The notes: a model not told the origin generated them from the sequence alone. A stretch of 64,000 nucleotides of DNA from Candidatus Poribacteria bacterium (GCA_958295815.1 OY282374.1:2882856-2946855), one strand, 5' to 3'; shown: positions 14,774 through 52,375, counted from the stretch's first letter. Numbers and translations are program-made.

Positions 14774-14848
14774 GGGATAGTATAACAGGAGTATAGACTG
14801 GTGTCTATAAATTTTGGAGGGTGTGCCAGAGAGGTTTTACGCGTCGGG
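14774..14848 (-). promoter_or_regulatory. Promoter/operator module copy 1 (TAGACA-17-TATACT on the minus strand; palindrome TATAGACTGGTGTCTATA at 14792-14809)
   Basis: About 75-bp element repeated at 16659-16740, 52325-52375 and, degenerate, at 15261-15305. The perfect 7-4-7 palindrome overlaps the -35. Confidence 0.6.
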
Positions 14849-15124
14849 TTCGTCATCTCCATATCCGCGTGCAAGGGTCTGCATAGAGAGCCGATACCAT
14901 CCTTCACGATCCAGCGATTCTTGTTCCGATTCATATTTGTCAATGAGCACCTCAACGATTTCCATTAACGAAGCCAATGGATGATTTTCATTTTCGCCGA
15001 TGAGTTCTATTAAGTGGTCTCGCAAAACAGAAAGCCGCTGATAATCGCTTTCTGTGCGTGGGACAAATATAATAGGAGTCAGTTGTGGCCATATATCTTG
15101 AGCGGTTTGTATCTCGGTTAGCAT
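14837..15124 (-). CDS. HigA-antitoxin N-terminal-domain-like protein (no HTH)
   Basis: AAGGAG RBS 5 nt upstream. The pattern LTPIIFVPRTESDYQRLSVLRDHLIELIGENENHPLASLMEIVEVLIDKYE parallels the E. coli HigA N-terminal region (APFLAGIQNEEQYTQALELVDHLLLNDPENPLLDLVCAKITAWEE). Confidence 0.45.
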   Translation of the reverse strand: MLTEIQTAQDIWPQLTPIIFVPRTESDYQRLSVLRDHLIELIGENENHPLASLMEIVEVLIDKYESEQESLDREGWYRLSMQTLARGYGDDEPDA

Positions 15125-15260
15125 ATTAACTCCTTGTTAATATTCCAAAAATTCTCCAAAATCTAATGGTTGTAACGTGAAATCGACACAAACAGGCAGT
15201 AATCGACATCCAGTGTCCAATGACATTTAATTGATATATCGGACTCGCGCTACGCCAATC

Positions 15261-15305
15261 TCTGGAATAGTATAACACAATTGAAATGATGTCTACAAAT
15301 TCTGA
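15261..15305 (-). promoter_or_regulatory. Degenerate copy of the promoter/operator module upstream of the HigA-like gene
   Basis: GGAATAGTATAACA...GATGTCTACAAATTCTG aligns with module copies 1 and 2. On the minus strand it gives TAGACA, about 15 nt, then TATACT. Confidence 0.4.
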
Positions 15306-15346
15306 TAGAAGGGTAGGAGAGCCTTTACGGCAGGCACACATCGAAA

Positions 15347-16435
15347 TTAATTTCTGCGATGTTTGTTGTAGGCAAATTCAAGAACAGGGAGAAGTTCAGA
15401 TATGGTTTTAGCTACACGATAATAGACAAAATGGACTGGTCCATGTTTGCTAATACGACAAAATTCACATCCATACTGACGTCTCAATTGTTCTGCCTCC
15501 ACTTCCACTATTCGGACAAAAACTTCAAGTGGATTCTGTCCACTAAGAATAAGTCCAAACGGTCTCTCTATTTTCAGGCTTCCCCTATATCCGAGAAAAA
15601 AACCACAACCAAAAAGACTGTTAGCAACATCCCTAAATCGCAGTTTTAATTCCCACTGTTCTTTTATAATTAAATTTATTAAGTCTGCTGAGCCTTTATA
15701 AAACGCTTCGTATACCTCTATAAGATATTTTGACTGACAGCGCTCGCTAAACCTTTGAGGTGCTGAATTTTTAACCTTCGATGCAGTCCACACACCTGTC
15801 CCAAGAAGTGTAATAAATCCAGAAGAATCTATTACCTCTGTGTGTGTCAACTCGTTACCAATTCCATCGTCATAAGGATCAGTTCTATGATTAATTGGAC
15901 TAGGTTCGGGAATATCTACTGTCCCTCGCTCCTCTAATGCGATTTCAGCATTCAATTCTGCTTCACCGGATGCCACATTCGATTTTAGGAGATATTTTTC
16001 CAAATTAGAGATAGCATTCTCCCGATTTTCAATATCGGTTTCGCAAAAAATTCTGTCACTCAAACTGGAGGCTTCCCACCGAGAGAGATAAAACCGCCAG
16101 AGTTTTCCGTTCGTAATTATGGCAAGCGGAATATTTCCGCTATAAGCGTAAAAACAGATTTGCTGCTGGTTTCTTTCGATTGGTTGATCCCATCGCTTGC
16201 ATTCAATGAGCACCGCAGGACTTTCTTCTCGTATGATGTGTAAGGCATAATCAGCCCTTCTACTTTCAACCTTATATTCCGGCAAGATTTCCATAGACGC
16301 TAAATTGGTATCATCCCACCCTAAAGCCCGCAGAATTGGTAAGACAACATATTGCTGAATGGTCGCCTCATTGGCTTCCTCTAAGTGGTGCTTGTGCTCA
16401 AGAATATGGGAAATCGTGTTTCTCAAATCATTCAT
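15347..16435 (-). CDS. HsdR_N / PD-(D/E)xK nuclease-domain protein with a C-terminal domain of unknown function
   Basis: VLPILRALGW...EYKVESRRADYALHI...PAVLIECKRW...NGKLWRFY matches the type I restriction-enzyme R-subunit N-terminal / Mrr-like D...E-x-K core. Start uncertain (16435 or 16492). Confidence 0.6.
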   Translation of the reverse strand: MNDLRNTISHILEHKHHLEEANEATIQQYVVLPILRALGWDDTNLASMEILPEYKVESRRADYALHIIREESPAVLIECKRWDQPIERNQQQICFYAYSGNIPLAIITNGKLWRFYLSRWEASSLSDRIFCETDIENRENAISNLEKYLLKSNVASGEAELNAEIALEERGTVDIPEPSPINHRTDPYDDGIGNELTHTEVIDSSGFITLLGTGVWTASKVKNSAPQRFSERCQSKYLIEVYEAFYKGSADLINLIIKEQWELKLRFRDVANSLFGCGFFLGYRGSLKIERPFGLILSGQNPLEVFVRIVEVEAEQLRRQYGCEFCRISKHGPVHFVYYRVAKTISELLPVLEFAYNKHRRN

Positions 16436-16490
16436 GCAAAATTTTCCTAAGTTGTAAGAATTGATAAAATTTCTGGCAGGACTAACACAC

Positions 16491-16568
16491 ATGTCGCCCC
16501 GCTGGGGCTAAAGCGGGGAACAGCATCTGCCACTATAGACATATCGCCCCGCTCGGGCTTTAACACAT
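16491..16568 (-). promoter_or_regulatory. Structured 5' leader with duplicated GC hairpins (GCCCCGC...GCGGGGC) ahead of gene 15347-16435
   Basis: Two direct repeats (ATGTCGCCCCGCTGGGG / ATATCGCCCCGCTCGGG) form 6-7-bp GC stems between the promoter module and the start codon. Confidence 0.35.
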
Positions 16569-16658
16569 TTTCGAGTCGGCTTAAAAGTTTCCCCGACGAT
16601 TGATGAAAAGGCATCTAAAAACGTGAGGAAATAACATTTATTATTTTAAGGTAGCAAC

Positions 16659-16740
16659 TTGGATTAGTATAACAGGGATTATAAACTGGTGTCTATAAAT
16701 TTTGGAGGGTATGCCAGAGGGATTCTGCGCGTAGGTTAGA
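16659..16740 (-). promoter_or_regulatory. Promoter/operator module copy 2 (TAGACA-17-TATACT on the minus strand; core TTATAAACTGGTGTCTATAA)
   Basis: Near-identical to 14774-14848. Its upstream flank is fused to the TAGCAACTTGGATTA tail of the 100-bp repeat family. Confidence 0.55.
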
Positions 16741-16758
16741 TTGAAAAGGTTACATAGT

Positions 16759-17844
16759 TTAATGGGATTTTTTTAGTTCTCCCCAGTGCGTTGGAAGTTT
16801 GTCTTTTGCTTCAACGGGACGAAAGCCGGTATCATATGCCTCAACAATTGGCGAGAATCTTCCGGCTCCCATGTAACCACCTAAGGCATAGATTGTACCA
16901 TTAACAACAACCGTCATTGTAGTTTTTAGGCTTGTCATTGGCTCTATTTTGCGCCATGTGTTGACTGTTGGATCATAAATATCAACATTACCGATGTATT
17001 TAAGCTCATTTTCCAACCTCATACCACCTATTGTATACACCTCATTATCGACAGCAACGGTTTCAAACCAGCCTTTGAACATTGGCATGTCAGGGAGCTG
17101 ACGCCACTTGTCGGTCTTTGGATTATATTCTTCAATACTTTTAACGAAACGTTCGGGAAGACCGGGGACCCACCGCCAAGTATAACCACCGAGAACATAA
17201 ATTTTACCGCCTACAACGACAGCATCAGTCTGCCCTCGTTCTGTCGGCATGTCTGCGCGCTTCTCCCATCTATTAGTCAACGGATCATAGACCTCAACGA
17301 GACCTGTTGCCTCACCATCACCAAGTTTTTTGTCGAGAACACGTCCACCGATGACGTATATCTTTCCATCAACGACAGCGGTAGTGAAGCCGTCACGAAG
17401 TATTGGCATATTCCGCTTTTTGACCCATGTGTCGGTTCCTGTGTCATACATCTCGACGTTCTTTTTGTATCTCCTCGCACCCCGATGGCCTTTTCGATCA
17501 TATCCTCCAAACACATAGATTTCGTTGGAAAAAACTGCAGTTTGCGGCGTAACCCGCGGTGTTGGCATATTTGCAGCTGCGTGCCATGTCTTCGTCTGCG
17601 TGTCGTAGACATCTACTGTTGAAAGCGCAGGCGCACCACCCCCTAAATTTTCATGGTGATCGAAACCACCAATGAGATAAATTTCACCCTTGACAACAGC
17701 AGCGGCATCACCTATGCGCCATGTTGGCAGTTCGGACACCTGTTCCCAATCACGAGCAAAACTGCTGGAAACAACAACGAGTAAGAGGGTAAAAACCCAT
17801 TGCAAATACCTGTATTTTGCGAGCATAATGTTCTCCTTAGACAT
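16759..17844 (-). CDS. Kelch-repeat beta-propeller protein (secreted)
   Basis: Signal peptide. Repeated GG-Y/F-D blocks with the W/Y spacing typical of Kelch blades. Confidence 0.8.
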   Translation of the reverse strand: MSKENIMLAKYRYLQWVFTLLLVVVSSSFARDWEQVSELPTWRIGDAAAVVKGEIYLIGGFDHHENLGGGAPALSTVDVYDTQTKTWHAAANMPTPRVTPQTAVFSNEIYVFGGYDRKGHRGARRYKKNVEMYDTGTDTWVKKRNMPILRDGFTTAVVDGKIYVIGGRVLDKKLGDGEATGLVEVYDPLTNRWEKRADMPTERGQTDAVVVGGKIYVLGGYTWRWVPGLPERFVKSIEEYNPKTDKWRQLPDMPMFKGWFETVAVDNEVYTIGGMRLENELKYIGNVDIYDPTVNTWRKIEPMTSLKTTMTVVVNGTIYALGGYMGAGRFSPIVEAYDTGFRPVEAKDKLPTHWGELKKSH

Positions 17845-18107
17845 TTATGACACGTGTGTTTGACATAGAAGTGTTCAGAAAGAGGACTCCTTACTATTGT
17901 TAAAGTGTTAAAGACGCAATTTTAGGGTGGAAAAGGTGCATAATTTGGGAAAAATGACAAAATAGTTTTCAGGAAGGACGTTGGGTTCACTCTCGCGCCT
18001 TTAAAGGAGAATCGCAGATGAAGACTGTCGTATTTTGGATGTATAGTGTTTCATCTCCGCCCGTTCAACCCAACCTACGTGTCAATCTTTAATATTGAAC
18101 TTACGTT

Positions 18108-19817
18108 TTATTCTTTTCGCTTTGGCACAGCAGGTTCGACGTATAGTGTCTTTTCGCGTGTGTAATGTACATAGCCTGCGACGTTGCCTTTTCGTTTGAC
18201 GACATAACGCGCCCATGTGTAGTCAACAGGGACATTGCTAGCATGGTGCGCTTTGCTGTAATAAGCGGCGAGTTGCGCGGCTTGTAATAAGGTCGGCATC
18301 GGGATGTCTTGTCGGTTCTCTGGGTTACGGATGATTACGTGTGAACCGTGTATCTGCTTGGTATGGAGCCACATATCACGCGGTTTAGCGATTTGACGTA
18401 AGAGCAGGTCGTTGGATTGGCTGTTTCGTCCAACGTATATCTGAAATCCGTTGGTAGAGGTGTATTTTCGGAAAGGACCGTCGCTTGCTTCCTGTTTCTG
18501 CTTCCCGCGCTGTGAGGACTTAATGTAGCCATTGGTAACAAACTCGGTGCGGAGACGTTGGAGTGTTTGTAAAGTGTCAGCGGATTCCAATTTGGATACA
18601 CAAAGCCGCAGTGTCTCCTGCTCCGCCTCAAGGTCTGAAATTAGCTGCAGGATACGCGACCGTCCGCGTTTCGCTTTCGTATACTTCTTGAAATAAGCCT
18701 GTGCGTTCTCGGAAGGGGTCTGCTCAGGGTCGAGAGGAATTACCAACATTTCCAGTTCAGGACTGTAGTAGTTCTGCAACTCGACCTGTTTTTGTCCACG
18801 GGTAATGTTATGTAAATTGGCGAGTAGCAATTCTCCCTGAATACGGTAATCTTCTGATTTCTCTGCCCGTTCTAAGTCGTTACACAGCCCATCTGCTTTT
18901 CGCTGAAGTAGATTCTCCTGTTTCTTCAACGCCTGCGTAAGCGCATGCTGTTCTGAATCCATAAGCTCCTTCAGCGTGATTGCATCGTAGTATGCCCCGA
19001 GTGCTTCGTTCATTGTCTCGAATGCTTGACAAAAGGCTTGCGGAAATTGATGCAGGGGCAGTGGAGATGCGGCAATCGGTTCATCGTTATCCATAAGCAG
19101 TTGTGGTGTGGCATGCTTTGGATCGAAATAGGCTATAACTTGCTGATAGGCATCCCAGAGCTCTGTCTCCGCTGCGCGTGCGACGACCTCTTTTGCGAGT
19201 GTAGGACCGAAGCCGTCAATCTTATTGAAAAGCTGCCGCCAACTCACTTGAGCCTGTCCGCCAACAAGTTCGGTAAACGCCGCTTTGTCTAACGTCAGCG
19301 GATCCAACTTCTCCTGTTGTGGTGGTAAAGTGTAAGTCTCACCGGGCATAACCTCGCGGTGCCGACTCATTGTCTCGTCGATGCGTTTGAGACTCTCTAA
19401 GATCCGATCATCCTCTGTATCAACAAGAATGATGTTGCTATATTTCCCCATGCACTCCGCTATAAGGGCTTTCGGGGAGGGTTGTATAGGATCATCGGAA
19501 ACGGGTTGGACGGTTATCTTGAGTATCCGATCCCAACCGAGTTGTTCAATCTCGGTGATTGTGCCACGTCTGAGATGCGTTGTGAGGAAGTCCGCAAGAT
19601 AAGACTGTTTCTGTCCAGGTGGCGGCTTTTCGATGAGGTGTGCTCGTGCATGCAGCGAATGTGCCGATAACGTGAGCCAATGGTTTTCTGCAGCGCGACC
19701 GATTTTGAATGAAAAAGTGTGTGCGTTCGCCTGTTCAATGTGCCGAATCGTGCTACCTAAAAGGGCATCGCGCAGCTCATGAACGACAAAACGGAGAGCT
19801 AAACTATCGTAAGACAT
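18108..19817 (-). CDS. NFACT-family ribosome quality-control protein (RqcH / FbpA-like) with C-terminal NFACT-R (DUF814)
   Basis: N-terminal NFACT-N-like region. C-terminal YVGRNSQSNDLLL...DMWLHTKQIHGSHVIIR matches DUF814. Confidence 0.75.
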   Translation of the reverse strand: MSYDSLALRFVVHELRDALLGSTIRHIEQANAHTFSFKIGRAAENHWLTLSAHSLHARAHLIEKPPPGQKQSYLADFLTTHLRRGTITEIEQLGWDRILKITVQPVSDDPIQPSPKALIAECMGKYSNIILVDTEDDRILESLKRIDETMSRHREVMPGETYTLPPQQEKLDPLTLDKAAFTELVGGQAQVSWRQLFNKIDGFGPTLAKEVVARAAETELWDAYQQVIAYFDPKHATPQLLMDNDEPIAASPLPLHQFPQAFCQAFETMNEALGAYYDAITLKELMDSEQHALTQALKKQENLLQRKADGLCNDLERAEKSEDYRIQGELLLANLHNITRGQKQVELQNYYSPELEMLVIPLDPEQTPSENAQAYFKKYTKAKRGRSRILQLISDLEAEQETLRLCVSKLESADTLQTLQRLRTEFVTNGYIKSSQRGKQKQEASDGPFRKYTSTNGFQIYVGRNSQSNDLLLRQIAKPRDMWLHTKQIHGSHVIIRNPENRQDIPMPTLLQAAQLAAYYSKAHHASNVPVDYTWARYVVKRKGNVAGYVHYTREKTLYVEPAVPKRKE

Positions 19818-19869
19818 GGCGGAATTTCACCTCTATAGCAGAAAACAGGATGCATTGGAAAGTGCGTCT

Positions 19870-20808: not shown

Positions 20809-20820
20809 AAGTTTCTCCTC

Positions 20821-21639: not shown

Positions 21640-21656
21640 TTTTTCTTTTTTCCCTT

Positions 21657-22781: not shown

Positions 22782-23020
22782 TGAATTGTAACTCCTCTTT
22801 TTGATTTAAATTCTTTTTTTGATGCGTCTAACACTATATATGATAACGCATTCGCCATAAAAACGCAAATCGCTTCATTTTGGTTTACATTATTATTTTT
22901 GGATATTTAGGATTCGGTTGTGGGCAAGTTATTTTCAGTCTAATAAAGGGGCAAAGGAAGGTCGATCATTCGATAATTCACCGATTGTAAAATCTACAAT
23001 TATATGGACGATTGTAAAGC

Positions 23021-23050
23021 GTCGGGGTTACAAACGCCTCCTACAAAGAG
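23021..23050 (+). repeat. Single REP-like hairpin GTCGGGGTTACAAACGCCTCCTACAAAGAG
   Basis: Same family as the 45245, 55794 and 36337 copies. Confidence 0.7.
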
Positions 23051-23205: not shown

Positions 23206-25071
23206 TTACTTTAGAATCAGCATTTTGCGGAGTTGAGAAGTGTTCTGCGTCTGTAGATGATAGAAATAGATACCACTCGCAACCGGTTCACCGATTTCAT
23301 TTTTGCCATCCCAATAGGCAGCACGACTCTTATCGGTATAGTAGCCGTCGCGTTGATGTCCGAGTTTAAGTTGACGGATAAGGGTGCCCCGCGAATTATA
23401 AATGCTGATTTGAACGTCACTCGAATTCGCTAAATGATAGGGTATCCATGTCTCGGGGTTGAATGGGTTGGGATAGTTGGCGAGAAGCAGTGTCTTCTCT
23501 GGACGTGTTGAGAATAAAATCTCTTCTATTAGCGTAATTACCTGCTTGTATTTCGCTGAGCCATCGCTCTCGAGTCGTAAATTACGCAGATATGTCCGTA
23601 GTGTTTCACGATCTACTGCTTTGAGCGTTTTCTCCGCCATGACTGTGTTCAAAATGCTGTTTGAAGGTGCTGCGTTATCGTCTGTTGTATCATTCAGCAC
23701 TTTGATAAAGAGTCTAATTGTATCTGAACCGCCATTGCCATCAGTGACTGTAACTATTGTTTTATGAACTTTCTGAGTCTCAAAATCTAATTCAGCAACA
23801 GTTTGGAGCTGTCCAGTGCTGCTATCAATGCTAACGACTACTTCATTGTCGTGACTAATGGAGTAATTCAAGGTGTCACTATCTTCATCCGTAGCTGGTA
23901 TGGGTTCACCGAATTCTGTCCCTATAGCTATGTTTTCTGTGACAGTACGACGCATGCTTTTTTTGCCATTATTGATTACGGGTGCATTATTAGTAGCATC
24001 GTCGCTTGTGTCGTTAGTGATATTGATAGTGACATCAATTGAATCTGAACCTCCATTATTATCCGAGACTGAGACCGTTACTTCATAGGAAGTCTTTGTT
24101 TCATAATCCAGACTTGCACTCGTCTTTAACTGACCTGTACCGCTGTCGATAGCAAATGAATTCTCATCAGTCCCGCCAAGTGTGTACGTTAAAGTGTCGT
24201 CGTCGGCATCCGTCGCACTTATTGCGTTACCGAAGTTTGTACTTGATGCTGTATTTTCTGTGACTGAACGCGTCGTGGTATCACCATCATCGAACACCGG
24301 AGCATTGTTATTGTTGCTTGCGGCAGCAGTGCCATTGATAGTGACAACAATTGATCCCTGTCCACCCTTTCTATCAAGGGCTGTGATCTGCAATTCAACT
24401 GATGTCCCGGCATCGATCCCCATATCATTGCGATTCGTTACCAACTGTCCGGTGCTGGTATCAAGGTCAAATCGGGATAATATCCAGAAAAAGCCGAAAT
24501 TCCCGAATGGGCTAATCACGTATGTCAATGTGTCGTCATCTGGATCCGTCGCTGTAAAAGGATCACCGAGCAGCGTTCCTTTAGGTGCGTCTGTTGCAAC
24601 CGAACGGGTCGCCGTTTCACCCGCATCGAACACGGGTGCGTTGTTAACATTGATCGTGACAGCAATTGTGTCTGAACCGCCATTACCATCCGAGACTGTG
24701 ACCGTTACTGAGAAGGTCCCATTAGTATAGTCGATGTCAGCACCCACTTTTATCCGTCCGATATCGATGGTGCCATCATGAATGGTGACGTTATCAATGG
24801 TGAATGAAGCCGCATCGGTGCCACTAAGACTGTACGTCAATGTGTCGTCGTCATCATCCGTTGCTCTAATGGAATCAACGGTTCTACCTTCTGGACTGTC
24901 ATTTAGGACCCAAATCGTCGTGCTATCACCATCATCAAACACCGGGGGGTTATTCGCATAACTTATACTTTGGTTGGATAACAGCGTTATGCTGAGAACC
25001 AACACAATAACTTTTAGGCTCATTTGGTGAAGAACCTTCATTTTACTTGACCTCCATTTAAGACTGTTCAA
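23206..25071 (-). CDS. Cadherin-like-repeat surface protein with T9SS C-terminal sorting domain
   Basis: Repeated NAPVFDDGD...ATDADDDTLTY cadherin-like units. C-terminus NYPNPFNPETWIPYHL...VQISIYNSRGTLIRQL...WDGKNEIGEPVASGIYFYHLQ matches the T9SS type-A CTD. Confidence 0.7.
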   Translation of the reverse strand: MNSLKWRSSKMKVLHQMSLKVIVLVLSITLLSNQSISYANNPPVFDDGDSTTIWVLNDSPEGRTVDSIRATDDDDDTLTYSLSGTDAASFTIDNVTIHDGTIDIGRIKVGADIDYTNGTFSVTVTVSDGNGGSDTIAVTINVNNAPVFDAGETATRSVATDAPKGTLLGDPFTATDPDDDTLTYVISPFGNFGFFWILSRFDLDTSTGQLVTNRNDMGIDAGTSVELQITALDRKGGQGSIVVTINGTAAASNNNNAPVFDDGDTTTRSVTENTASSTNFGNAISATDADDDTLTYTLGGTDENSFAIDSGTGQLKTSASLDYETKTSYEVTVSVSDNNGGSDSIDVTINITNDTSDDATNNAPVINNGKKSMRRTVTENIAIGTEFGEPIPATDEDSDTLNYSISHDNEVVVSIDSSTGQLQTVAELDFETQKVHKTIVTVTDGNGGSDTIRLFIKVLNDTTDDNAAPSNSILNTVMAEKTLKAVDRETLRTYLRNLRLESDGSAKYKQVITLIEEILFSTRPEKTLLLANYPNPFNPETWIPYHLANSSDVQISIYNSRGTLIRQLKLGHQRDGYYTDKSRAAYWDGKNEIGEPVASGIYFYHLQTQNTSQLRKMLILK

Positions 25072-25172
25072 ACAAATTCACTTCTCTAACTTCCACACAA
25101 AATTATACTTCAACATCATTAGTAATTATAGCGCAATTATATTATTTAAGCAAAATTAATTATTATGCGTTT

Positions 25173-25400: not shown

Positions 25401-25465
25401 TGGACAGGTGTTGTCGGGAATTGGAGTTCCCTCCTACAGAAGAACGGAGTGCCCTTGCTTTTGAA

Positions 25466-27737: not shown

Positions 27738-27957
27738 CATAAATCGGGCTTACAAAGCCCTCCTACAAGAATGGCTGGATCACTACATAAATCGGGCTTA
27801 CAAAGCCCTCCCACAAGAAAAGCCCTTCCACAAGATGGATCGGTTTATTACATAAATCGGGCTTACAAAGCCCTCCCACAAGAAAAGCCTCCCACAAGAT
27901 GGGTTGGGTTATTACATAAATCGGGCTTACAAAGCCCTCCTACAACGGAGAACTTTC
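27738..27957 (+). repeat. Tandem array (4 units, about 55-60 bp period) of the REP-like hairpin AAATCGGGCTTACAAAGCCCTCC[C/T]ACAA
   Basis: Four direct copies separated by AGAAAAGCC..CACAAGATGG..TTATTACAT spacers. The ORF track reads through them as a false N-terminus of lnt. Confidence 0.85.
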
Positions 27958-30832: not shown

Positions 30833-30941
30833 GCGGGAATTTGTTCCTACACGGAGAGTCGGGAATCGGAGTTCCCTCCTACAAATAGCAGTCAGCAGTC
30901 AGCAGTCAGAAAGAGTCGGGAATCGGAGTTCCCTCCTACAG
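30833..30941 (+). repeat. Cluster of three REP-like hairpins (GGGAATCGGAGTTCCC-TCCTACA variant) separated by a (CAGCAGT)3 microsatellite
   Basis: GAGTCGGGAATCGGAGTTCCCTCCTACAA appears twice, with a degenerate GGGAATTTGTTCCTACAC copy upstream. Spurious ORF 30806-31003 covers it. Related single copies at 11102-11129 and 25404-25430. Confidence 0.8.
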
Positions 30942-31205
30942 GAAAACTAAATAGCCCTGCTTTTTTGGTTGCTTTATGCATAAAACTGGGGTATAATTAT
31001 TAAATCTAAGATACTGATAGACGCGTGTTTAAAATAAAAAAACAAGGGTTTTCCTAACTGATGATATAGCATTGGCTTATGGTAAAAGTAAAAAATACAG
31101 ACCTTCATCAGAAATGTTACACTTTCCGCTCAATATTTTTCAACGGAAAATAGCATGAAAATCGCTCTGGAAGCCACACGGTGATTGGGTTTCTAACAAA
31201 ATTCA

Positions 31206-32748: not shown

Positions 32749-32797
32749 GGTGAAGATACGATTCAGTACCGTATATTAAAATGTGAGTTTGTAAAAA

Positions 32798-33349
32798 ATG
32801 AGGACCGCGCCGCCCCTCCTTACAGAAAGGTTGATACTTCGCTCATTTACACTTGACGATGCCGCCGATGTGCAACGGCTTGCTGGCGATTACGATGTTG
32901 CCTCAACATTAACCAATATGCCACATCCTTATGAAGATGGTATGGCGGAAGAATTTATGCACGTCTGCTCCGAGAAATTTGAGAAAAACAAAGCTTTAAA
33001 CTTCGCAATTACGCTGAGAACAGACAAAAACTTCATTGGCGAAATAGAACTTAGACTCGATCAAGAAAACAAGAGCGGTGAACTCGGTTATTGGATTGGG
33101 AAACCGTATTGGAACTCTGGGTATTGCACCGAGGCAGTAAGGGCTGTTGTTGCATACAGTTTTAAGGTGTTGAAGCTGCATCGAATTCACGCTAAATACT
33201 TCAAACGCAACCCTGCCTCTGGACGGGTGCTGGAAAAAATCGGGATGCGTTATGAAGAGAGTCGCCGAGAATATGTAAAAAAATCGGATAGTTTTGAAGA
33301 TTTTAGGGTGTACGGGATCTTAAAAGCAGATTTCGACCCTAATTCGTAA
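32798..33349 (+). CDS. GNAT family N-acetyltransferase (RimJ/RimL-like), paralog 1
   Basis: TERLILRSFTLDDA...ELGYWIGKPYWNSGYCTEA...HRIHA is typical of RimL-like GNATs. Confidence 0.8.
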   Translation: MRTAPPLLTERLILRSFTLDDAADVQRLAGDYDVASTLTNMPHPYEDGMAEEFMHVCSEKFEKNKALNFAITLRTDKNFIGEIELRLDQENKSGELGYWIGKPYWNSGYCTEAVRAVVAYSFKVLKLHRIHAKYFKRNPASGRVLEKIGMRYEESRREYVKKSDSFEDFRVYGILKADFDPNS

Positions 33350-33368
33350 GTTGTGAGTTGATAAAAAG

Positions 33369-33953
33369 ATGAGGAGCATACCGACTCTCGAAACAGAAAG
33401 ATTGATACTCCGCTCGTATACGCTTGAAGACGCGCCTGATTTGCAACGGCTTATTGGCGAATACGATGTCTCATCAACATTACCCGGTGTTCCGCATCCT
33501 TACGAAGATGGTATGGCGGAGGAATGGATTCGCTCTTGTTCCGACAAGTTTGAAAAAGACGAAGCCCTACATTTTGCGATTACGCTGAGAACAGATAGGA
33601 ACTTCATTGGCGGGATAGGCATTAAACTCGATCGAAAGAATGAGAGAGGAGAGATCGGTTATTGGGTAGGCAAACCGCATTGGAGCCGTGGGTATTGCAC
33701 CGAGGCAGCACGTGCTCTTGTTACGTATAGTTTTGAAGCGTTGAAGTTGAATCGAATTCATGCTTATTATTTTACACGAAACGCTGCCTCCGGACGAGTT
33801 ATGGAAAAAATCGGGATGCGCTATGAAGGGTGTTTCCGGCAACATGTAAAGAAATGGGATAATTTTGAGGATATAATGGTATACGGGATCTTAAAATCAG
33901 ATTTCGACCAATTTAATGCCGATGCCGTCCCAAGGGACATAAATGAGATTTGA
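33369..33953 (+). CDS. GNAT family N-acetyltransferase (RimJ/RimL-like), paralog 2 (tandem duplicate)
   Basis: About 60% identical to the upstream paralog, with identical motif order. Confidence 0.8.
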   Translation: MRSIPTLETERLILRSYTLEDAPDLQRLIGEYDVSSTLPGVPHPYEDGMAEEWIRSCSDKFEKDEALHFAITLRTDRNFIGGIGIKLDRKNERGEIGYWVGKPHWSRGYCTEAARALVTYSFEALKLNRIHAYYFTRNAASGRVMEKIGMRYEGCFRQHVKKWDNFEDIMVYGILKSDFDQFNADAVPRDINEI

Positions 33954-41701: not shown

Positions 41702-42010
41702 AGAGGCTATGGGAAACAAGATGTTTTAACTCTTGGACCACGTAGCAGTTTTGCGTGCGACGCTTTTTTCGGTTTGGACGCTCGTCCTTTGGGGTATCAT
41801 CAGGGGCGTACATCCCCACAAGCATCGGATATCGCGCTCCTTTGCAATTATGGGTCATCTTTTGTCTCTACACGTTGCTCAGAGGAACTATCTACATCCT
41901 CAATCAGATAGCCGACTGGGAAACCGATTCCAATTGTATCTCTCACCTCCGCCGTCATTTACCCTATTTGTCTATTGGAATTATACGCAAGTTGCGAGAT
42001 ATTTACGTAA

Positions 42011-42297
42011 ACGGCACACGGAGTGTGTCTGCTACTCCTGTTACGGCACATGGAGTGTGTCTGCTACTTTTAACTCACGACAACGGCACACGACGGAGTG
42101 TGTCTGCTACTTTTAACCCACGACAACGGCACACGGAGTGTGCCTACTACTTTTAACTCACGACAACGGCACACGGAGAGTGTCTGCTACTCCTGTTACG
42201 GCACACGGAGTGTGCAGCGTTTATTATTGACATCTCACTGCTTTCGGGGTGTCTGCTACTCCTGTTACGGCACACGGAGTGTGCCTACTACTTTTAA
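42011..42297 (+). repeat. Tandem array (about 7 units, 33-43 bp) of hairpin repeat ACGGCACACGGAGTGTG[C/T]CT[A/G]CTAC...
   Basis: Units alternate between a ...CTGCTACTCCTGTT form and a ...CTACTACTTTTAAC[T/C]CACGACA form. The hairpin core is GGCACAC-GGA-GTGTGCC. Two more copies at 1256-1351. Spurious ORFs 41733-42307 run through it. Confidence 0.85.
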
Positions 42298-42309
42298 GGA
42301 TTCTTGAAA

Positions 42310-43158
42310 ATGAAGACGGTGCTGGCGTACCTTGAATTGGCACGCCCTCTCAACGGAATTATCGCTTTTATCTCGGCATGGCTCGGAGGGGTATTCGCAA
42401 GCCGAGGTGACACAGAAAACCTTTTAGACGTCCGTCTGTTGTTAGTTTCTATCGCTGCATTACTCCTACTATCCGCAGGGAACGCTATAAACGATTATTG
42501 TGATTACAATATAGACCGAATTAACCGTCCACAGAGACCACTCCCTTCCGGACGAATTCAGAGACTACACGCCGTGATTTTCGCAATAGTTCTGATGGTA
42601 ATTGGCATCTGGCTTGGAACACTTATTAGTAAAAGTGCTATAATCTTTGCAATCCTCGTAGCCGTTGCCCTGATCGGTTACGCTTTCTGGCTAAAACGCA
42701 CCCCTTTTGTAGGCAATTTGGTTGTCAGCGGCTTAACGGGTTCTACCTTCATTGCGGGAGGCATCGCGATAGACTCGGTGCAGGGCACACTGGTTCCAGC
42801 TATCTTTGCGTTCTTGTTCACAGCAGCACGAGAGATTATCAAAGACCTTGAAGATACAGAGGGTGATCTGAAAAACAGCGTTAAAACACTTGCGATCCTC
42901 AATCCACGTCTTGCTGTAGGAACAGCACTTGGTTTCATGGCACTCGTTATTTTGTTCAGTCCTATCCCGTATCTATTCGGATGGTACTCATGGCATTATC
43001 TGTTTGCGGTTGTACTCGGTGTTGACTTAGTTCTAATCGGATTGGCAATTCGGCTGTTGCGTGATACTTCCAAAGAGAGTTGTGCTGCCATTCAACGCTG
43101 GATGAAATGGGACATATTCGTGGGACTCGGTGCGATCTACATCGGAATATTTTTATGA
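42310..43158 (+). CDS. UbiA-family prenyltransferase (digeranylgeranylglyceryl-phosphate synthase-like)
   Basis: Eight to nine TM helices. Asp-rich motif NAINDYCDYNIDRINRPQRPLPSG (the UbiA NDxxDxxxD box). Encoded next to GGGPS. Confidence 0.7.
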   Translation: MKTVLAYLELARPLNGIIAFISAWLGGVFASRGDTENLLDVRLLLVSIAALLLLSAGNAINDYCDYNIDRINRPQRPLPSGRIQRLHAVIFAIVLMVIGIWLGTLISKSAIIFAILVAVALIGYAFWLKRTPFVGNLVVSGLTGSTFIAGGIAIDSVQGTLVPAIFAFLFTAAREIIKDLEDTEGDLKNSVKTLAILNPRLAVGTALGFMALVILFSPIPYLFGWYSWHYLFAVVLGVDLVLIGLAIRLLRDTSKESCAAIQRWMKWDIFVGLGAIYIGIFL

Positions 43159-44375: not shown

Positions 44376-44489
44376 CAAATCACCACAAATATGGTAAAAT
44401 TTTAAAAACAGTGGTCGGCACACAAGCCATGTAAAGATAGACGGCTTGCGAGTCGAGATTTAACATCCCGAAAAAAGGATAAATCGCAT

Positions 44490-45236: not shown

Positions 45237-45244
45237 AACAACCG

Positions 45245-45340
45245 GGAATTCGGGGTTACAAACCCCTCCCACAATGTGAAAATTACTTCAAACGCTTTGT
45301 TGAAGCATCTAAAACTTGTTAGTAGCAACTTGGATTAAAA
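45245..45340 (+). repeat. 100-bp composite intergenic element, copy A (REP hairpin GGGGTTACAAACCCC + TCCCACAATGTGAAAATCACTTCAAACGC... + TAGCAACTTGGATTA tail)
   Basis: Shares more than 85% identity with 55794-55890 and 62692-62776. Has internal palindromes GTGAAAATCAC and AAACG...CGTTT. Confidence 0.85.
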
Positions 45341-45405
45341 TTGGCGACATTGGAAAATAGGCTTGCAGGAAACAGCAAGAAATTAAGAAAAAGGACTTCA
45401 TTATT

Positions 45406-46245: not shown

Positions 46246-46266
46246 TACAATAGGAAGGGACAGTCC

Positions 46267-47382: not shown

Positions 47383-47444
47383 TCCGTATAGATAGAGCGA
47401 TTCAATTTTTAGAGAGAGTGTACAACGGTGTATGAGTGCTCAAC

Positions 47445-48347
47445 ATGGTAAACAATTGGGCGAGAATCACGGTAACTACCTCTCAAGAGGCATCTGAGGC
47501 AGTCGCGAACTGCCTTTTTGAATTGGGCGCGACAGGCGTTGAATTCGAGGATAGCAGTGCGTCTACGGTAAACCTTATTGCCTATTATCCATTAGATGAC
47601 CGGGTTGGTGCGCGAATGCAGAGGCTCCGCGATTTCCTTGCGGAACTTCCGACCTGGGGCATTCAGTCAGAACCTGCCACAATCGACTTAAAACCTGTGA
47701 AATCTGAGGATTGGGAAGAAGCGTGGAAAGCTGCTTTTCCACCGATGCGCGTTGGAAATAGGATTCTGATCACGCCAACGTGGAGCGATACGCCGCACAA
47801 GGAAACGGATGCTGTAATCCAACTGGATCCGGGTATGGCATTCGGCACTGGTCACCATCCTACCACTCGGCTATCCCTCGAATTATTGGAAGACTCGGTT
47901 GAATCACTCTACCACGTCGCTGACATCGGGAGCGGTTCTGGTATTTTAACTGTCGCCGCTGTGAAATTGGGAGCGCAACAGGTTGACGCGATTGAACTGG
48001 ATCCATCGGCTATTCCTGTCGCATCAGCAAATTTTAAAATAAATGGGATCGAATCGCGAGTCCGATTAACTCAAGGTGATGGACTCAAGAGCGTAGAAGG
48101 CAAATACCACCTCATTATCGGAAATATCCTAACGAAGGTGATTCTCCCGATCATTCCATACTGCGCACCACGACTACATCACGCTGGAGCAGTTATCTTT
48201 TCTGGGATACTTGACACAGAACTGGCGCAAGTTGAATCGGTTTTAGAAGCGCACCAGTTTCGATGTATTGAGGTCGTACGTGAAACAGAAGACAATATCA
48301 CTTGGGTAGGAGTTAAGGCGATTCTCCAATCGGCAGCTGCGTTATAG
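47445..48347 (+). CDS. prmA: Ribosomal protein L11 methyltransferase
   Basis: PrmA N-terminal domain plus SAM-binding motif DIGSGSGIL. Confidence 0.85.
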   Translation: MVNNWARITVTTSQEASEAVANCLFELGATGVEFEDSSASTVNLIAYYPLDDRVGARMQRLRDFLAELPTWGIQSEPATIDLKPVKSEDWEEAWKAAFPPMRVGNRILITPTWSDTPHKETDAVIQLDPGMAFGTGHHPTTRLSLELLEDSVESLYHVADIGSGSGILTVAAVKLGAQQVDAIELDPSAIPVASANFKINGIESRVRLTQGDGLKSVEGKYHLIIGNILTKVILPIIPYCAPRLHHAGAVIFSGILDTELAQVESVLEAHQFRCIEVVRETEDNITWVGVKAILQSAAAL

Positions 48348-48362
48348 AGGCTTGTACAACAC

Positions 48363-48623
48363 TTAGCGTGGTTCCTCTTTTGACATTCCGTGGCACAGAG
48401 TGCATCTACCGAGATTCAGATGTGGCATTGTGGGTGATTTTTCATCGCCTATTAAATGGCATTTCAGACATTCAGCGTCTGCCTCTGAACCGCGATGTTC
48501 CTCAATGTTAGAACGCGCAGGCGCAGCGTTGAAAAAAAGAATAACCATAACAATTGCGAAAATTAGACCGATAACGCTGACAATAACCATAAGCGTCTTG
48601 GCACTGGCTTGTTCTGTTGGCAT
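48363..48623 (-). CDS. Small membrane-anchored dihaem c-type cytochrome (candidate)
   Basis: 86 aa. N-terminal TM helix. Two CxxCH motifs (CLKCH, CTLCH). Immediately downstream of the PIG-L gene on the same strand. The RBS spacing is long (14 nt), so it is uncertain. Confidence 0.45.
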   Translation of the reverse strand: MPTEQASAKTLMVIVSVIGLIFAIVMVILFFNAAPARSNIEEHRGSEADAECLKCHLIGDEKSPTMPHLNLGRCTLCHGMSKEEPR

Positions 48624-48641
48624 TGACTAAAATGAGACTCC

Positions 48642-49460
48642 TTATTTGAAAAATGGGAAGAGGATAGGGATATTTTCTGCAGTTAGTGATGAACCGTATT
48701 CGCACCCTTCAAATGCCTCAGCATATTGGATCTGCGTGCCTGATTCTTCGCCATATAGTGCTATTAGCAAGTCGCGATACTTATCGGCTATAGCACGAAA
48801 ACCCTGCAAGCGACGTTCAGCGAGCCATGTCCGTCGTGCTGAATCACGAGTTGGAACACTTTCTAATGTGCCGCCGTTGTAAGGGAGCCACTCATAGAAC
48901 TGTGATACGTGGCAGTGCAGCATATCAATCTTTTGCTCAATCACGGCATCAATACCGACAGCTACATCCGGTGTGAATGGGTACGGCTTCATGAAACCAT
49001 CACTTAAATAGGCAATAACAGGGTTTGTCCGTAAATCCGGCGTAAGTGCACAAATATTCGGGACGGTAACCATATATGCGGCATCCTGTACCAACGTTGA
49101 TGTATACCGGTGATCAGGATGGTAATCGTTAGGACGATGGGTCATAATTAGGTCTGGTTGGAATTCACGAATTGCGCGGATAATCTTGTAACGGTTTTCT
49201 AATGTCGGCATCAGTTCGCCGTCGTGATTGTCCAGCAGTTCGTATTCAATACCGATAACTTCAGCGGCGGCTTGTGCTTCTGCATTCCGTCGCTGTGCTA
49301 AGGGACCACCACCCATTTCGTGGTGTCCAGCATCGCCGTTTGTAACAGAGACAAATTTAACGCGATGCCCCTGTTGTACATACAACGCAGCGACACCTCC
49401 TGCTTTAATATCACAATCATCGGGATGCGCCCCGAAAACAAGAATATTTAATGTTGACAT
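48642..49460 (-). CDS. PIG-L/LmbE-family N-acetylglucosaminyl deacetylase
   Basis: N-terminus ILVFGAHPDDCDIKAGG...TNGDAGHH is the PIG-L zinc-binding signature. Confidence 0.8.
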   Translation of the reverse strand: MSTLNILVFGAHPDDCDIKAGGVAALYVQQGHRVKFVSVTNGDAGHHEMGGGPLAQRRNAEAQAAAEVIGIEYELLDNHDGELMPTLENRYKIIRAIREFQPDLIMTHRPNDYHPDHRYTSTLVQDAAYMVTVPNICALTPDLRTNPVIAYLSDGFMKPYPFTPDVAVGIDAVIEQKIDMLHCHVSQFYEWLPYNGGTLESVPTRDSARRTWLAERRLQGFRAIADKYRDLLIALYGEESGTQIQYAEAFEGCEYGSSLTAENIPILFPFFK

Positions 49461-49564
49461 TTTTCATTATCCTCTAAAAGATTACGTGGGTTCTACCTGT
49501 AACAGATGTATCTTAGAAGTATGACGCTCCCGTTCTGTGGGAAAGGCAATTATTAAACAATACT

Positions 49565-50032
49565 ATGCAAAACTGGAAAGTTGAAGTCTACTATAAACCT
49601 GAAGTCCCCGATACGATCGGGCAAGGCATTGTTGAAGATATAACCGATCTCGGTATTAGTGGCGTCGATTCTGTTCGCACAGCCACGGTTTACTGGATTG
49701 AAGGCACACTTGATGCCGAGGCTATCGACCGAATTGGTATGGAACTTCTTGCTGACCCGATCACACAAGTTTACACTTTCAGGTCTCAAAGCGATTCGAC
49801 GACAGACTGGACGCTTGAAGTACAATTCAAGCCGGGTGTTACCGACGCTGTTGGTGATAGTGCTGTCAAAGGCATCAAAGATTTAGGCATTACAGGTGTC
49901 ACAGGTGTTCGTACTGGACATAAGTATTGGCTAACGGGTAACCTGAATGCTGAGATACTTGAAACGATTGCGAGACGGCTTCTTATGAACGATGTTATCC
50001 AAACGTTTTCTTATGAAGAACCGCAGTCGTAA
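49565..50032 (+). CDS. purS: Tandem-PurS fusion (two PurS-like domains; FGAM synthase PurS component)
   Basis: Two repeats of about 75 aa, KVEVYYKPEVPDTIGQGIVEDITDLGISGVDSVRTATVYWIEG and TLEVQFKPGVTDAVGDSAVKGIKDLGITGVTGVRTGHKYWLTG, match the PurS fold pattern. Confidence 0.65.
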   Translation: MQNWKVEVYYKPEVPDTIGQGIVEDITDLGISGVDSVRTATVYWIEGTLDAEAIDRIGMELLADPITQVYTFRSQSDSTTDWTLEVQFKPGVTDAVGDSAVKGIKDLGITGVTGVRTGHKYWLTGNLNAEILETIARRLLMNDVIQTFSYEEPQS

Positions 50033-50041
50033 TGACTATCT

Positions 50042-50854
50042 CTAACTCGCATAGACCCGAATCACTGTCCCTAAATGAAGTCGGACTAAGGTAGAAGTCG
50101 CCGCTCGCCGAAGTATGAAGCGAAACCCAGCAGCCTGACTAACGCGCCTCGGTTTGCCTAACGTAATGTTCCGAAAACCGTGTTTCTGGAGCAGTTTTGG
50201 TAAAGAGCGCGCAGAGAAATAGTAGAGATGGTCACGCGGATGAACGTAGGGCCAATCTGCTTTCTGGAGACGACTCTGGAGACTTTCCCCGTTCGGCACT
50301 TCAATGACAAGCGTTCCCGTTTGCGGTTTCAGTACCCGGCGTAATTCACTGAGAAGCGGGTTCAATTCCGGTATATGCTCTAATACATGATAGAGTGTAA
50401 TTGCGTCGAAATGTGCGTCGGGAAAATCTGCATCAAATACCTCTCCACACTGTACATCCAATTTATGTATCTCTTGTGCGAACGCACTTCCGCTCTTGGA
50501 AGGTTCAACGCCGTCCGGCTCCCAACCGCGTTCACGAGCGAGGTGGAGGAACGTGCCGATACCGCATCCAACATCCAACAACCGACCTTTATCTTCGCAT
50601 TGCTTTTCCAACTCCGTGAGACGTTCTGTCATCTGCAGCCATTCCATGCTGTCTGTATGGATACGCTCCATCTTATCCGGCGGATAGTAAGTTTCAACGT
50701 AGCCTTCCTCAAGTGTCTGGCGGCTGACGCGCGGGTTCACATATCGTAGATGACACTGTTTGCAGGCAACCACCGACAGCGAGTCTTTATCAAAAAGCAA
50801 CTCTGTCTCATCTCGCTCACAGATAGGGCAGTCAATATGTTCTAAAATATCCAT
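50042..50854 (-). CDS. Class I SAM-dependent methyltransferase with N-terminal zinc ribbon
   Basis: CPIC...CKQC zinc ribbon. SAM motif LLDVGCGIGTF. Confidence 0.75.
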   Translation of the reverse strand: MDILEHIDCPICERDETELLFDKDSLSVVACKQCHLRYVNPRVSRQTLEEGYVETYYPPDKMERIHTDSMEWLQMTERLTELEKQCEDKGRLLDVGCGIGTFLHLARERGWEPDGVEPSKSGSAFAQEIHKLDVQCGEVFDADFPDAHFDAITLYHVLEHIPELNPLLSELRRVLKPQTGTLVIEVPNGESLQSRLQKADWPYVHPRDHLYYFSARSLPKLLQKHGFRNITLGKPRRVSQAAGFRFILRRAATSTLVRLHLGTVIRVYAS

Positions 50855-50868
50855 TGTCCCACGATTGA

Positions 50869-51882
50869 CTAAAAGTAGGGCACGCCTTGTGCTTCCACAT
50901 AAATCGAGTAGAGTGACTGGCTACCCATCATAAACAGTCGATTCCGTTTCACGCCACCAAAGCAGAGATTCGCACAGATTTCAGGGAGATGAATTTGCCC
51001 GATCCGGGTTCCATCGGGTGCGTAGACATGCACACCATCGTAGCCGTCGCCAGCCCAGCCTGCGCTCGCCCATAGGTTTCCATCAGTATCACACCGAATA
51101 CCGTCAGCGATACCCGGTGAGGTATCACAGAATACTTCCTGTTTGCCCAATCGCTCGCCATCTATTACGTCGTAGACGAAGAGATGCCGCGGTGTTCCCT
51201 CTTTATGCGTGACGCCGGTATCAACGAGATAGAGTTTCTCATAGTCGGGTGAAAAGCAGATGCCGTTCGGTTTTTCGAGTTCATCGGTTGCGATGGTCGC
51301 TTCTCCGGTATCAGGATTGAGGCGATACACGCAGGTCGGCAGCTGAAATTCGGCTTTGTGTCCTTCGTAGTTGAGCATAATGCCGTATCCGGGATCGGTA
51401 AACCAGATATGTCCATCTTCGTGGACTGCGACATCGTTCGGTGCGTTGAGCGGCTTGCCGTCAAAACTGTCCATCAGGACGGTAATTGTTCCGTCATATT
51501 CAGTGCGTGTGACACGCCGAGCACCGTGTTCACAACTGACGAGTCTTCCCTGCCGGTCGCGGGTGTGCCCGTTGCTATAGTTCGAGGGTTTCCGATAGAC
51601 GCTTACTTCACCGGTGGATTCCTCCCATTTCAGAATCCGATTGTTCGGAATATCACTCCAGAGTAGATATCCACCGTCGCCGAACCAGGCGGGCCCCTCT
51701 GCCCAGCGCGATCCTGTCCATAACCGTTCGACAACGGTATTACCGATTGTATATTTATTAAAACGAGGGTCTAACGCCTCGATTGCTGGATCGGGATAGC
51801 GGACGATTGATCCGTCCCATTTTCTTTCTGTACTCATCCATATCTCCTTTAAATAGCACTGCCAACAGCAGAACGCTTTCAA
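50869..51882 (-). CDS. SMP-30/gluconolactonase/LRE-like beta-propeller hydrolase
   Basis: Six-bladed propeller pattern: EGPAW..., LLWSDIPNNRILKW, multiple DG/DP blade motifs. Confidence 0.75.
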   Translation of the reverse strand: MKAFCCWQCYLKEIWMSTERKWDGSIVRYPDPAIEALDPRFNKYTIGNTVVERLWTGSRWAEGPAWFGDGGYLLWSDIPNNRILKWEESTGEVSVYRKPSNYSNGHTRDRQGRLVSCEHGARRVTRTEYDGTITVLMDSFDGKPLNAPNDVAVHEDGHIWFTDPGYGIMLNYEGHKAEFQLPTCVYRLNPDTGEATIATDELEKPNGICFSPDYEKLYLVDTGVTHKEGTPRHLFVYDVIDGERLGKQEVFCDTSPGIADGIRCDTDGNLWASAGWAGDGYDGVHVYAPDGTRIGQIHLPEICANLCFGGVKRNRLFMMGSQSLYSIYVEAQGVPYF

Positions 51883-51940
51883 TTTCTGGGAAATAGTATA
51901 TCACAATCGAGATGTTGTATGTAGGAAAATCTATGCGGAC

Positions 51941-52073
51941 TTGGTTATTGGTTATAAGTTATTGGTTAAGAAGCGGATAGCGGTGAGGTTATGGGTTGTG
52001 AGTTATGGGGGATGTGGGTTATAAGTTGTCTGAACCAGGATTTACAGGATTCAAGGATTTGCAGGATTATGGA
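51941..52073 (+). repeat. Degenerate short iterons (GGTTATAAGTTAT / GTTATGGG, then CAGGATT x3) in a divergent promoter region
   Basis: Same GTTATAAGTTA motif cluster as 11046-11103. Confidence 0.6.
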
Positions 52074-52324
52074 TGCCCTTGATTAACGACTGGCTTTTAT
52101 AGAATATCAAACTATTTTTTTTGGTTAATGGAAAACTGAATGGCTATGATATCCACGCCTTTCGCTTGTCTTTTACACACATGTATGGTACAATTGCCAT
52201 GATTATATGTAGTGTAGAAAGCAACCGGACCACAGAAAACCACTAATAAAAAACAATCCCTGAACACCCATTCCTTTTCTGAACACACAACCCTATACCG
52301 ACGCTTCTTCTTGACCGAAAATGA

Positions 52325-52375
52325 GATTGATAAACTGGTGTATAAATTGTATAATTTATCACCAGAGGGATACCG
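52325..52375 (+). promoter_or_regulatory. Promoter/operator module copy 3 (TTGATA-17-TATAAT on the plus strand) driving the AT-rich gene 52403-53563
   Basis: GATTGATAAACTGGTGT-ATAAATT...CACCAGAGGGAT aligns with copies 1/2 (ATAAACTGGTGTCTATAAATT...CCAGAGGGAT). Consensus -35/-10 at 52327-52332 and 52350-52355. Confidence 0.6.

Follow-up and report, generated by a model that had tools for sequence, protein, structure and literature searches.

Promoter-like repeats at a variable accessory-gene slot in Candidatus Poribacteria probably descend from the native promoter of a single gene

We analysed a 64-kilobase (kb) stretch of Candidatus Poribacteria DNA (GCA_958295815.1, OY282374.1:2882856-2946855; hereafter the window) that contains three tandem copies of a promoter-like module, all on the minus strand and each upstream of a minus-strand gene (genes A, B and C), in addition to a partially similar element at 52.3 kb preceding a fourth gene (gene D) on the plus strand. 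The module is probably the native sigma70-type extended -10 promoter of gene A, and duplication of this locus would explain the array. An earlier note on this DNA had interpreted the four elements as a small regulon with a dedicated transcription factor. This interpretation was not borne out, as three of the four elements form a tandem array of the same promoter at a single locus, and their likeness would therefore result from shared descent and not from shared regulation. Local duplication at an insertion hotspot can place nearly identical promoter-like repeats ahead of unrelated genes, and we caution against calling such repeats a regulon before orthologous loci are compared.

The conserved putative promoter module of gene A

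All four elements described in the earlier note were found where it had placed them. Copy 1 (14775-14848, minus strand), the putative promoter of gene A (14016-14747, minus strand; 243 amino acids (aa)), which appears to be the native owner of the module, contains a -35 hexamer TAGACA (14802-14807, minus strand) and an extended -10 element TGT-TATACT (14779-14787, minus strand) separated by a 17-nucleotide (nt) spacer. It is followed by a leader of ~25 nt that contains a GGAGGA ribosome-binding site; the start codon (ATG) of gene A is located ~32 nt from copy 1. Copy 2 (16659-16740, minus strand) lies upstream of gene C (15347-16435, minus strand; 362 aa), with its -35 at 16690-16695 and its -10 at 16666-16671. 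The spacing TAGACA-17-TATACT previously given for both copies holds for copy 1, and copy 2 has a spacer of 18 nt. The middle, degenerate copy (15266-15309, minus strand), upstream of gene B (14837-15124, minus strand; 95 aa), reads GAATTTGTAGACA, a 15-nt spacer and TGTTATACT; other possible readings are TAGACA-17-TACTAT, a weaker site in the promoter scan, and TTGTAG-18-TATACT. The TAGACA block is invariant in all three copies. In the promoter scan copies 1 and 2 score 10/12 and carry a TG ahead of the -10. With predicted transcription start sites, the leaders measure ~25 nt for gene A, ~145 nt for gene B and ~230 nt for gene C, and the earlier description of the elements as immediately 5' of a gene is thus accurate for copy 1 and does not extend to the other two.

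Homology among the three copies was assessed with an nhmmer profile of 15 modules from other genomes, from which the window was excluded. This profile recovers exactly three sites in the window, namely copy 1 (E=1.8e-11), copy 2 (E=7.8e-10) and the middle copy (E=1.1e-8); all other sequence in the window scores above E ~5. The degenerate copy at ~15.3 kb is thus confirmed as a true homologue. The reported near-identity of the copies at 14.8 and 16.7 kb is likewise confirmed, with 87% identity over 60 nt (14788-14847 in copy 1 versus 16676-16735 in copy 2; repeat family D17). The 21-mer ATAAACTGGTGTCTATAAATT occurs only in these two copies even when up to three mismatches are allowed (0.00 expected in the window), and TAGACA-N16-19-TATACT is also confined to them (0.01 expected in the window). 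The possibility that the module represents the general promoter consensus of this genome was ruled out, since within the 64 kb AAATTTRTAGACA and TGTTATACT are combined nowhere but at the three tandem sites; furthermore, the profile has no other site in ~290 kb of Poribacteria loci. Rfam yielded no match at E<=1 for 13.8-17.0 kb nor at the gathering threshold for the entire window, which does not suggest a known RNA element.

To place the module in other genomes, 185,579 species-representative genomes were scanned for AGTATAACA-N10-15-RTGTCTAYAARTT, a pattern that all three window copies fit. In total, 16 matches were obtained, 11 of which belong to ten Poribacteria genomes and five to unrelated phyla (Clostridia, Oscillospiraceae, Acutalibacteraceae or Nitrospira), the latter in line with our own rough chance estimate of ~3. 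All 11 Poribacteria matches are located just 5' of a gene A orthologue as placed by tblastn, and each of five complete Poribacteria chromosomes (5.1-6.7 Mb) contains a single match. An exact 20-mer from the module has no match in GTDB representative genomes, and its sole match in JGI metagenomes (L001) was judged to be due to chance, as the contig is eukaryote-like and contains no module outside the 20-mer. The homologues of protein A all stem from Candidatus Poribacteria or from metagenome contigs, with 45-89% identity.

Alignment of 15 genomes gives the consensus CaAAATTTrTAGACAyy..TTtat..AAtyCTGTTATACTaTC..CACAgATT.AACATAGGAGGAA..ATG. The mean pairwise identity falls from 0.80 in the module and leader to 0.63 at the third positions of gene A codons and to 0.32 in the sequence beyond the module on its 5' side, a clear footprint which indicates that the module and its short leader are under purifying selection across Poribacteria. 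The block TGTTATACT, which combines a TGn motif with a TAnnnT -10 hexamer, is unchanged in the three window copies and in 15/15 orthologous modules. In an alignment of the window with 14 loci, spacer insertions and deletions between the invariant AAATTTRTAGACA and TGTTATACT blocks yield spacers of 15-19 nt. In addition, a more distant relative (L006; 61% protein identity) carries AATTTGTTGACA-N17-TATACT, a textbook promoter, at the same position. The earlier promoter reading is therefore upheld by the sigma70-type anatomy, the same-strand gene downstream and the purifying selection across Poribacteria.

The predicted promoter would consist of an A/T-rich tract (AAAATTT), the -35-like TAGACA, the 15-19 nt spacer, the invariant TGT-TATACT and the short GGAGGA leader. 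Extended -10 (TGn) sigma70 promoters with an A/T-rich UP-like tract have been defined in Escherichia coli. Like these, the module contains a TG one base 5' of the TAnnnT hexamer, a -35-like hexamer that fits TTGACA at 5/6 positions and an A/T tract directly 5' of the -35, and, as in E. coli promoters, it is positioned 25-30 nt 5' of the Shine-Dalgarno sequence and ATG of gene A. Unlike E. coli promoters, it belongs to an uncultivated phylum without mapped promoters, and its spacer varies over 15-19 nt across orthologues. A literature search on Poribacteria promoters gave no relevant title among the matches listed. For Candidatus Poribacteria, whose uncultivated members are sponge-associated and marine, the alignment provides a consensus of promoter and leader based on phylogenetic footprinting.

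A variable slot upstream of gene A and the origin of the three copies

The neighbourhood of gene A was compared across the window and 15 loci surrounding gene A homologues, four of which (L002, L004, L005 and L006) were furnished with gene calls and Pfam matches. By homology to these called loci, the window neighbours were identified as an NFACT-family gene (18108-19817, minus strand), a Kelch-repeat gene (16759-17844, minus strand) and a GroEL gene (12201-13835, minus strand). The NFACT-family gene forms the conserved left border of a variable slot that ends at gene A, and the Kelch-repeat gene is the left neighbour of the module in the window and in L004. GroEL is the right neighbour of gene A in 9/15 loci; L002 and L006 contain other genes on this side, and three of the 15 loci stop short of it.

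The slot is empty in L017 and L022 and contains a gene C homologue in eight loci, often with a HicB-like open reading frame (ORF) or its remnant ahead. HicA, HicB and C are present together in L002, a HicB-like gene in L005, B alone in L012, Kelch alone in L004, and Kelch, C and B in the window. Seven cargo states are thus distributed over the 15 loci and the window, with NFACT and gene A flanks that are ~80-89% identical. Gene C, the most common occupant, is only 37-59% identical between genomes, compared with 80-86% for the flanking genes. This divergence (window and orthologues in L014-L026) suggests diversifying selection or frequent replacement. Elsewhere, a HicB-like ORF or intact HicA and HicB usually lie between NFACT and C, as in the NFACT-to-C spacers of L020, L021 and L024; the coordinates are 7983-8560 for HicA and HicB in L002 and 9526-9771 for the HicB-like gene in L005, L023 keeps a short remnant, and the window has none.

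Conserved flanks and variable cargo, as expected of a core-flanked accessory-gene hotspot, are present at the NFACT-to-A slot. Accessory and defence gene hotspots of this kind include the core defence hotspots of Pseudomonas aeruginosa (PMC10250203) and the defence islands of E. coli (PMC10121019). Like these, the slot has fixed core flanks (NFACT and gene A, usually followed by groEL) and strain-variable cargo of toxin-antitoxin or nuclease flavour (HicAB, HsdR_N-like and HigA-N-like). Unlike these, it is tiny (0-3 genes), none of its cargo scores above threshold for a known defence system, one occupant is a Kelch protein, and its right border is a promoter that became multiplied. With its turnover of nuclease-like and toxin-antitoxin-like genes, the slot is a possible source of new accessory or defence genes.

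The likely origin of the three copies is indicated by L004, the closest relative (89% identity of protein A), which contains a single 125-nt spacer between Kelch and gene A. Its 5' half can be aligned to the stretch of the window that runs from the Kelch stop codon across copy 2 up to TGTTATACTA, and its 3' half to the copy 1 leader. In the ancestral Kelch-to-A spacer, copy 2 with the sequence up to the Kelch stop thus formed the 5' half, and the 3' part of copy 1 corresponds to the L004 leader. As the single spacer of L004 is split between the flanks of copies 2 and 1, the window carries an insertion of ~1.8 kb (14853-16664, minus strand), which comprises a pair of repetitive extragenic palindrome (REP)-like hairpins, gene C, the middle module and gene B and has no counterpart in the L004 spacer. 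Relative to L004, the insertion breakpoints lie directly after TATACTA and near ACGCG. Direct repeats of ~70 nt, represented by copies 1 and 2, bracket the insertion, and the upstream 30 nt of copy 1 consist of direct-repeat sequence that holds the final codons and stop of gene B. Gene B is 16 aa shorter than its orthologue in L012, which stands alone in the same slot, and since its last codons and stop fall inside the repeat, this end represents a novel joint at which B was truncated.

The middle copy has a separate history. Its allele (TGTAGACATC-ATTT...AATTGTG) groups with those of L002, L020, L022 and L023, those of L002 and L020 being nearest, and copies 1 and 2 carry the allele type of L012, L004 and L024; judged from these alleles, the middle copy is apparently not a recent copy of either. 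Furthermore, the REP pair and the start of gene C in the window match the arrangement in L023. Given this arrangement and the allele grouping, the block of REPs, gene C and module looks like a standard version of the C-type locus that was imported whole. The REP-like hairpin pair (TCGCCCCGCTGGGGCT type; 16480-16570, no strand assigned) is located in the predicted gene C leader, and a homologous pair lies 5' of C in L023. REP pairs of the form TATAGACATA..CCCCGCTGGGG recur at the NFACT-to-A slot of several Poribacteria in either orientation, at rearrangement junctions (window, 16480-16570; L023, ~4400-4480; L002, 9830-9900), and may be recombination substrates. Independently, L002 contains two identical modules 183 nt apart with REPs between them.

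We therefore propose that the slot took up different accessory genes over time and that three occupants (Kelch, C and B) would have accumulated in the lineage of the window, with one promoter after each. Copies 1 and 2 would represent a split duplication of the ancestral Kelch-to-A spacer around the 1.8-kb insertion, and the middle copy a different allele that travelled with gene C, which elsewhere usually lies directly 5' of the gene A promoter. Each copy now likely drives the next gene (copy 2, gene C; middle copy, gene B; copy 1, gene A), with probable read-through along the array. The shared expression signals of A, B and C would accordingly be a product of locus assembly and not of an evolved dedicated regulator. 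As recombination route we infer either unequal exchange between locus versions, possibly via REPs, or insertion with a long duplication.

The 52.3-kb element and gene D

The element at 52.3 kb (52325-52376, plus strand) precedes gene D (52403-53563, plus strand; 386 aa) and, as previously described, contains TTGATA-17-TATAAT on the plus strand, which was recovered by the promoter scan (52327-52355). An inverted repeat with 13-nt arms (CTGGTGTATAAATT / AATTTATCACCAG, 52333-52364) is centred on the -10 of gene D; it is absent from the promoters of D orthologues in L027-L029 and could be a lineage-specific repressor site. The promoters of these orthologues share the framework GAGATTGnT...ATAAATTGTATAATTTAACAyyAGAAGAAATCC...TAGGAG, in which the CCAGA block is ancestral to the D leader and the spacer containing the AAACTGGTGT block is unlike that of every orthologue. 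Relative to its gene, the element is inverted compared with the other three copies, and it is missed by the module profile even at E<=10. Taken together, the 52.3-kb element is the predicted promoter of gene D itself, separate from and outside the module family. The distant regulon member of the earlier note is hence better described as a conserved gene D promoter in the opposite orientation.

The near-identity formerly ascribed to this element is partly retained as a resemblance to copy 2: their alignment covers 54 nt with 76% identity (E=1.9e-4), a score that was reached by 0/200 Markov-simulated windows. The two sequences are alike in the blocks ATAAACTGGTGT, ATAAATT and CCAGAGGGAT. Furthermore, ACTGGTGT-N15-30-CCAGAG is found three times in the window (0.00 expected), once in each of copies 1 and 2 and once in the gene D promoter, and is absent from the orthologous promoters of other genomes. 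A profile combining these three sequences detected no additional site in the 64-kb window. This likeness appears to be a lineage-specific resemblance that is too weak for a regulon claim.

Gene D was formerly considered an AT-rich orphan; it is indeed AT-rich (36.7% GC versus 46.9% for the window) and, with 73 Poribacteria homologues, is not an orphan but a gene conserved in this phylum. Its predicted model has a mean predicted local distance difference test (pLDDT) score of 74, and the C-terminal half is weakly PIN/VapC-like (Foldseek E ~2e-3, probability 1.0). In 2/3 related loci gene D adjoins type IIG restriction-modification and FRG-domain genes. Two small ORFs (113 and 111 aa) follow gene D (52403-54269 for all three genes), and the same trio is found in L027 (4001-6150), where it adjoins the type IIG restriction-modification and FRG-domain genes. 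Gene D and the two small ORFs may constitute an uncharacterised three-gene toxin or defence module.

Alternative explanations

Several points weigh against the module being the promoter of gene A that was multiplied by duplication of its locus. A strict -35/-10 promoter would not usually show the range of 15-19 nt seen between TAGACA and TATACT among orthologues, and some factor might therefore also bind the invariant AAATTTRTAGACA block. The promoter activity is a prediction from the sequence. With an identity of only 87% between the direct repeats, a simple recent target duplication would not be their whole history. Furthermore, the likeness between copy 2 and the gene D promoter exceeds chance, and the duplication model gives no account of it. 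Finally, copies in the source genome were counted within the 64-kb window that was searched, and further copies may exist elsewhere in that genome.

The latter resemblance is the main argument for a common palindromic operator, TATAGAC-TGGT-GTCTATA, through which, in this lineage at least, a dedicated factor would co-regulate the four genes. In addition to the three ACTGGTGT-N15-30-CCAGAG sites and the alignment of copy 2 with the gene D promoter, the 13-nt-arm inverted repeat over the gene D -10 and the closest clade (window, L012, L004 and L024), in which 5-7 of the 7 palindrome pairs are formed, are consistent with such an operator. Yet the palindrome TATAGAC-N4-GTCTATA, which had been described around the -35 of each element, is complete (7/7) in copy 1 only. 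It reaches 6/7 in copy 2 and L012, 5/7 in L004 and L024, 2-3/7 in the other 11/15 orthologous modules and 2/7 in the middle copy; in the gene D promoter it is interrupted by a 2-nt deletion. Its left half coincides with the invariant -35 region and its right half with the variable spacer, and the palindrome is not a conserved operator. The boxes furthermore span -70 to -25 in A and C, whereas those of D span -35 to +10 and lie on the opposite strand relative to the gene. Of the motifs shared with D, CCAGA is ancestral to the D leader and AAACTGGTGT belongs to a spacer that differs among all D orthologues. In addition, the five complete chromosomes have one module each, 5' of gene A, the 64-kb window has no further site, and C and B occur in other genomes without the module.

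A regulator candidate was also not found. Gene B, which the earlier note had put forward as a possible helix-turn-helix (HTH) regulator and which was the sole candidate examined, has no detectable HTH domain in Pfam, NCBIfam or the PDB and is missing from most module-carrying genomes. The module resembles the LexA/SOS or Fur regulons in having a short, partly palindromic sequence over the -35 of two or three promoters. Unlike in these regulons, its sites are not dispersed and its palindrome is not conserved; moreover, the likeness spans the entire promoter and its flanks, as duplication gives, and not a conserved core within otherwise differing promoters, as operators do. We consider co-regulation by a dedicated factor unlikely. 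A weaker variant, in which a factor specific to this lineage recognises ACTGGTGT...CCAGAG and would link the array to the PIN-like gene D, is quite improbable.

Alternatively, the module could also serve as a recombination site at which units consisting of a gene and its downstream module integrate at the resident module and stack like cassettes, by homologous or site-specific crossover via a circular intermediate, each unit bringing the promoter of the next gene. This explanation agrees with the position of Kelch, C and B, each of which immediately precedes a module whether it is the only occupant of the slot in a genome or part of the stack in the window, with the foreign allele of the middle copy and its linkage to C, with the two identical modules of L002, and with the ~70-nt direct repeats around the 1.8-kb insertion. 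However, 13/15 loci contain a single module whatever their occupant, though insertion at the module would normally duplicate it, and unequal recombination through the REPs found at the junctions offers a simpler route. No integrase, transposase or other recombinase was detected among the gene calls with Pfam matches of L002, L004, L005 and L006, and an integron array was rejected on these grounds. By direct reading, the repeat also lacks attC-like R''/R' cores and overall hairpin symmetry: RYYYAAC / GTTRRRY cores are missing from its ends, the only symmetry is the inner 7-4-7 stem of copy 1, and an identity as attC was rejected.

The array is nevertheless comparable to integron arrays in that single genes in the same orientation are each followed by a repeat of 45-75 nt and the cargo is toxin-antitoxin-like or of unknown function. 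Unlike integrons, for which an integrase and attC cores with hairpin symmetry would be expected, the repeat here is a predicted promoter directed at the following gene, a feature that most integron cassettes lack, and most genomes have one copy. A second function of the module as recombination site is accordingly improbable. The more far-reaching idea that the gene A promoter doubles as a landing pad for an integrase-free, cassette-like spread of gene and promoter units among Poribacteria is quite improbable; if it were true, every captured gene would arrive with or receive a ready-made strong promoter.

That the element is a dispersed mobile repeat, such as a miniature inverted-repeat transposable element (MITE) or a REP-like sequence, resembling a promoter by accident is very improbable: although the window is rich in short intergenic repeat families and REPs abut copy 2, the element is single-copy in each complete chromosome, occupies the same orthologous position in ten genomes, lacks terminal inverted repeats and is conserved jointly with the downstream leader and gene, and an identity as MITE or REP was rejected as it is single-copy and positionally orthologous.

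Properties of the encoded proteins

The proteins encoded by genes A, B and D yielded nothing usable in sequence searches against Pfam, NCBIfam, PADLOC or the PDB, with no or marginal PADLOC matches. Protein A has a signal-peptide-like N-terminus and a confidently predicted beta-sandwich fold (pLDDT 88), for which the best PDB match is AziU3/U2, in addition to weak matches to carbohydrate-binding modules. Protein B has no family or structure match in Pfam, NCBIfam or the PDB. Protein C contains an HsdR_N / PD-(D/E)xK-like N-terminal domain (HsdR_N, E=6.5e-8), and its PADLOC matches are weak and sub-threshold (REase_MTase_IIG, 1e-4; Cas4, 0.011).

Additional repeats in the window

The window furthermore contains a composite intergenic element of ~95 nt with copies that are 87-90% identical (45244-45338, 55793-55886 and 62692-62774) and a partial copy at 4035-4099. 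It consists of a REP hairpin (TCGGGGTTACAAACCCCTCCCACAA), followed by CACTTCAAACGCTTTGTTGAA and then GTTAGTAGCAACTTGGATTA, and each copy is situated after the end of a gene and ahead of the plus-strand gene that follows. The final 15 nt of this element (TAGCAACTTGGATTA) also abut module copy 2 (16647-16667). The composite is a better candidate than the module for a truly dispersed upstream element.

GC-rich REP-like hairpin families, some of them in tandem, were identified at 27738-27945, 42005-42316, 1260-1369, 25413-25462 and 30858-30964, including one array with four copies of CATAAATCGGGCTTACAAAGCCCTCCYACAA and another of ACGGCACACGGAGTGTGCC units. Short tandem repeats of the GTTATAAGTTATAGG type are found in intergenic regions at 11044-11082 and 51944-52032, the latter ~300 nt 5' of the gene D promoter. 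In addition, 23691-24973 and 32793-33663 contain internal repeats of ~320 nt within a large ORF region (families D6, D8, D11 and D15) as well as a 300-nt repeat pair (D1; 76% identity, 571 nt apart), all of which are probably repeated protein domains.

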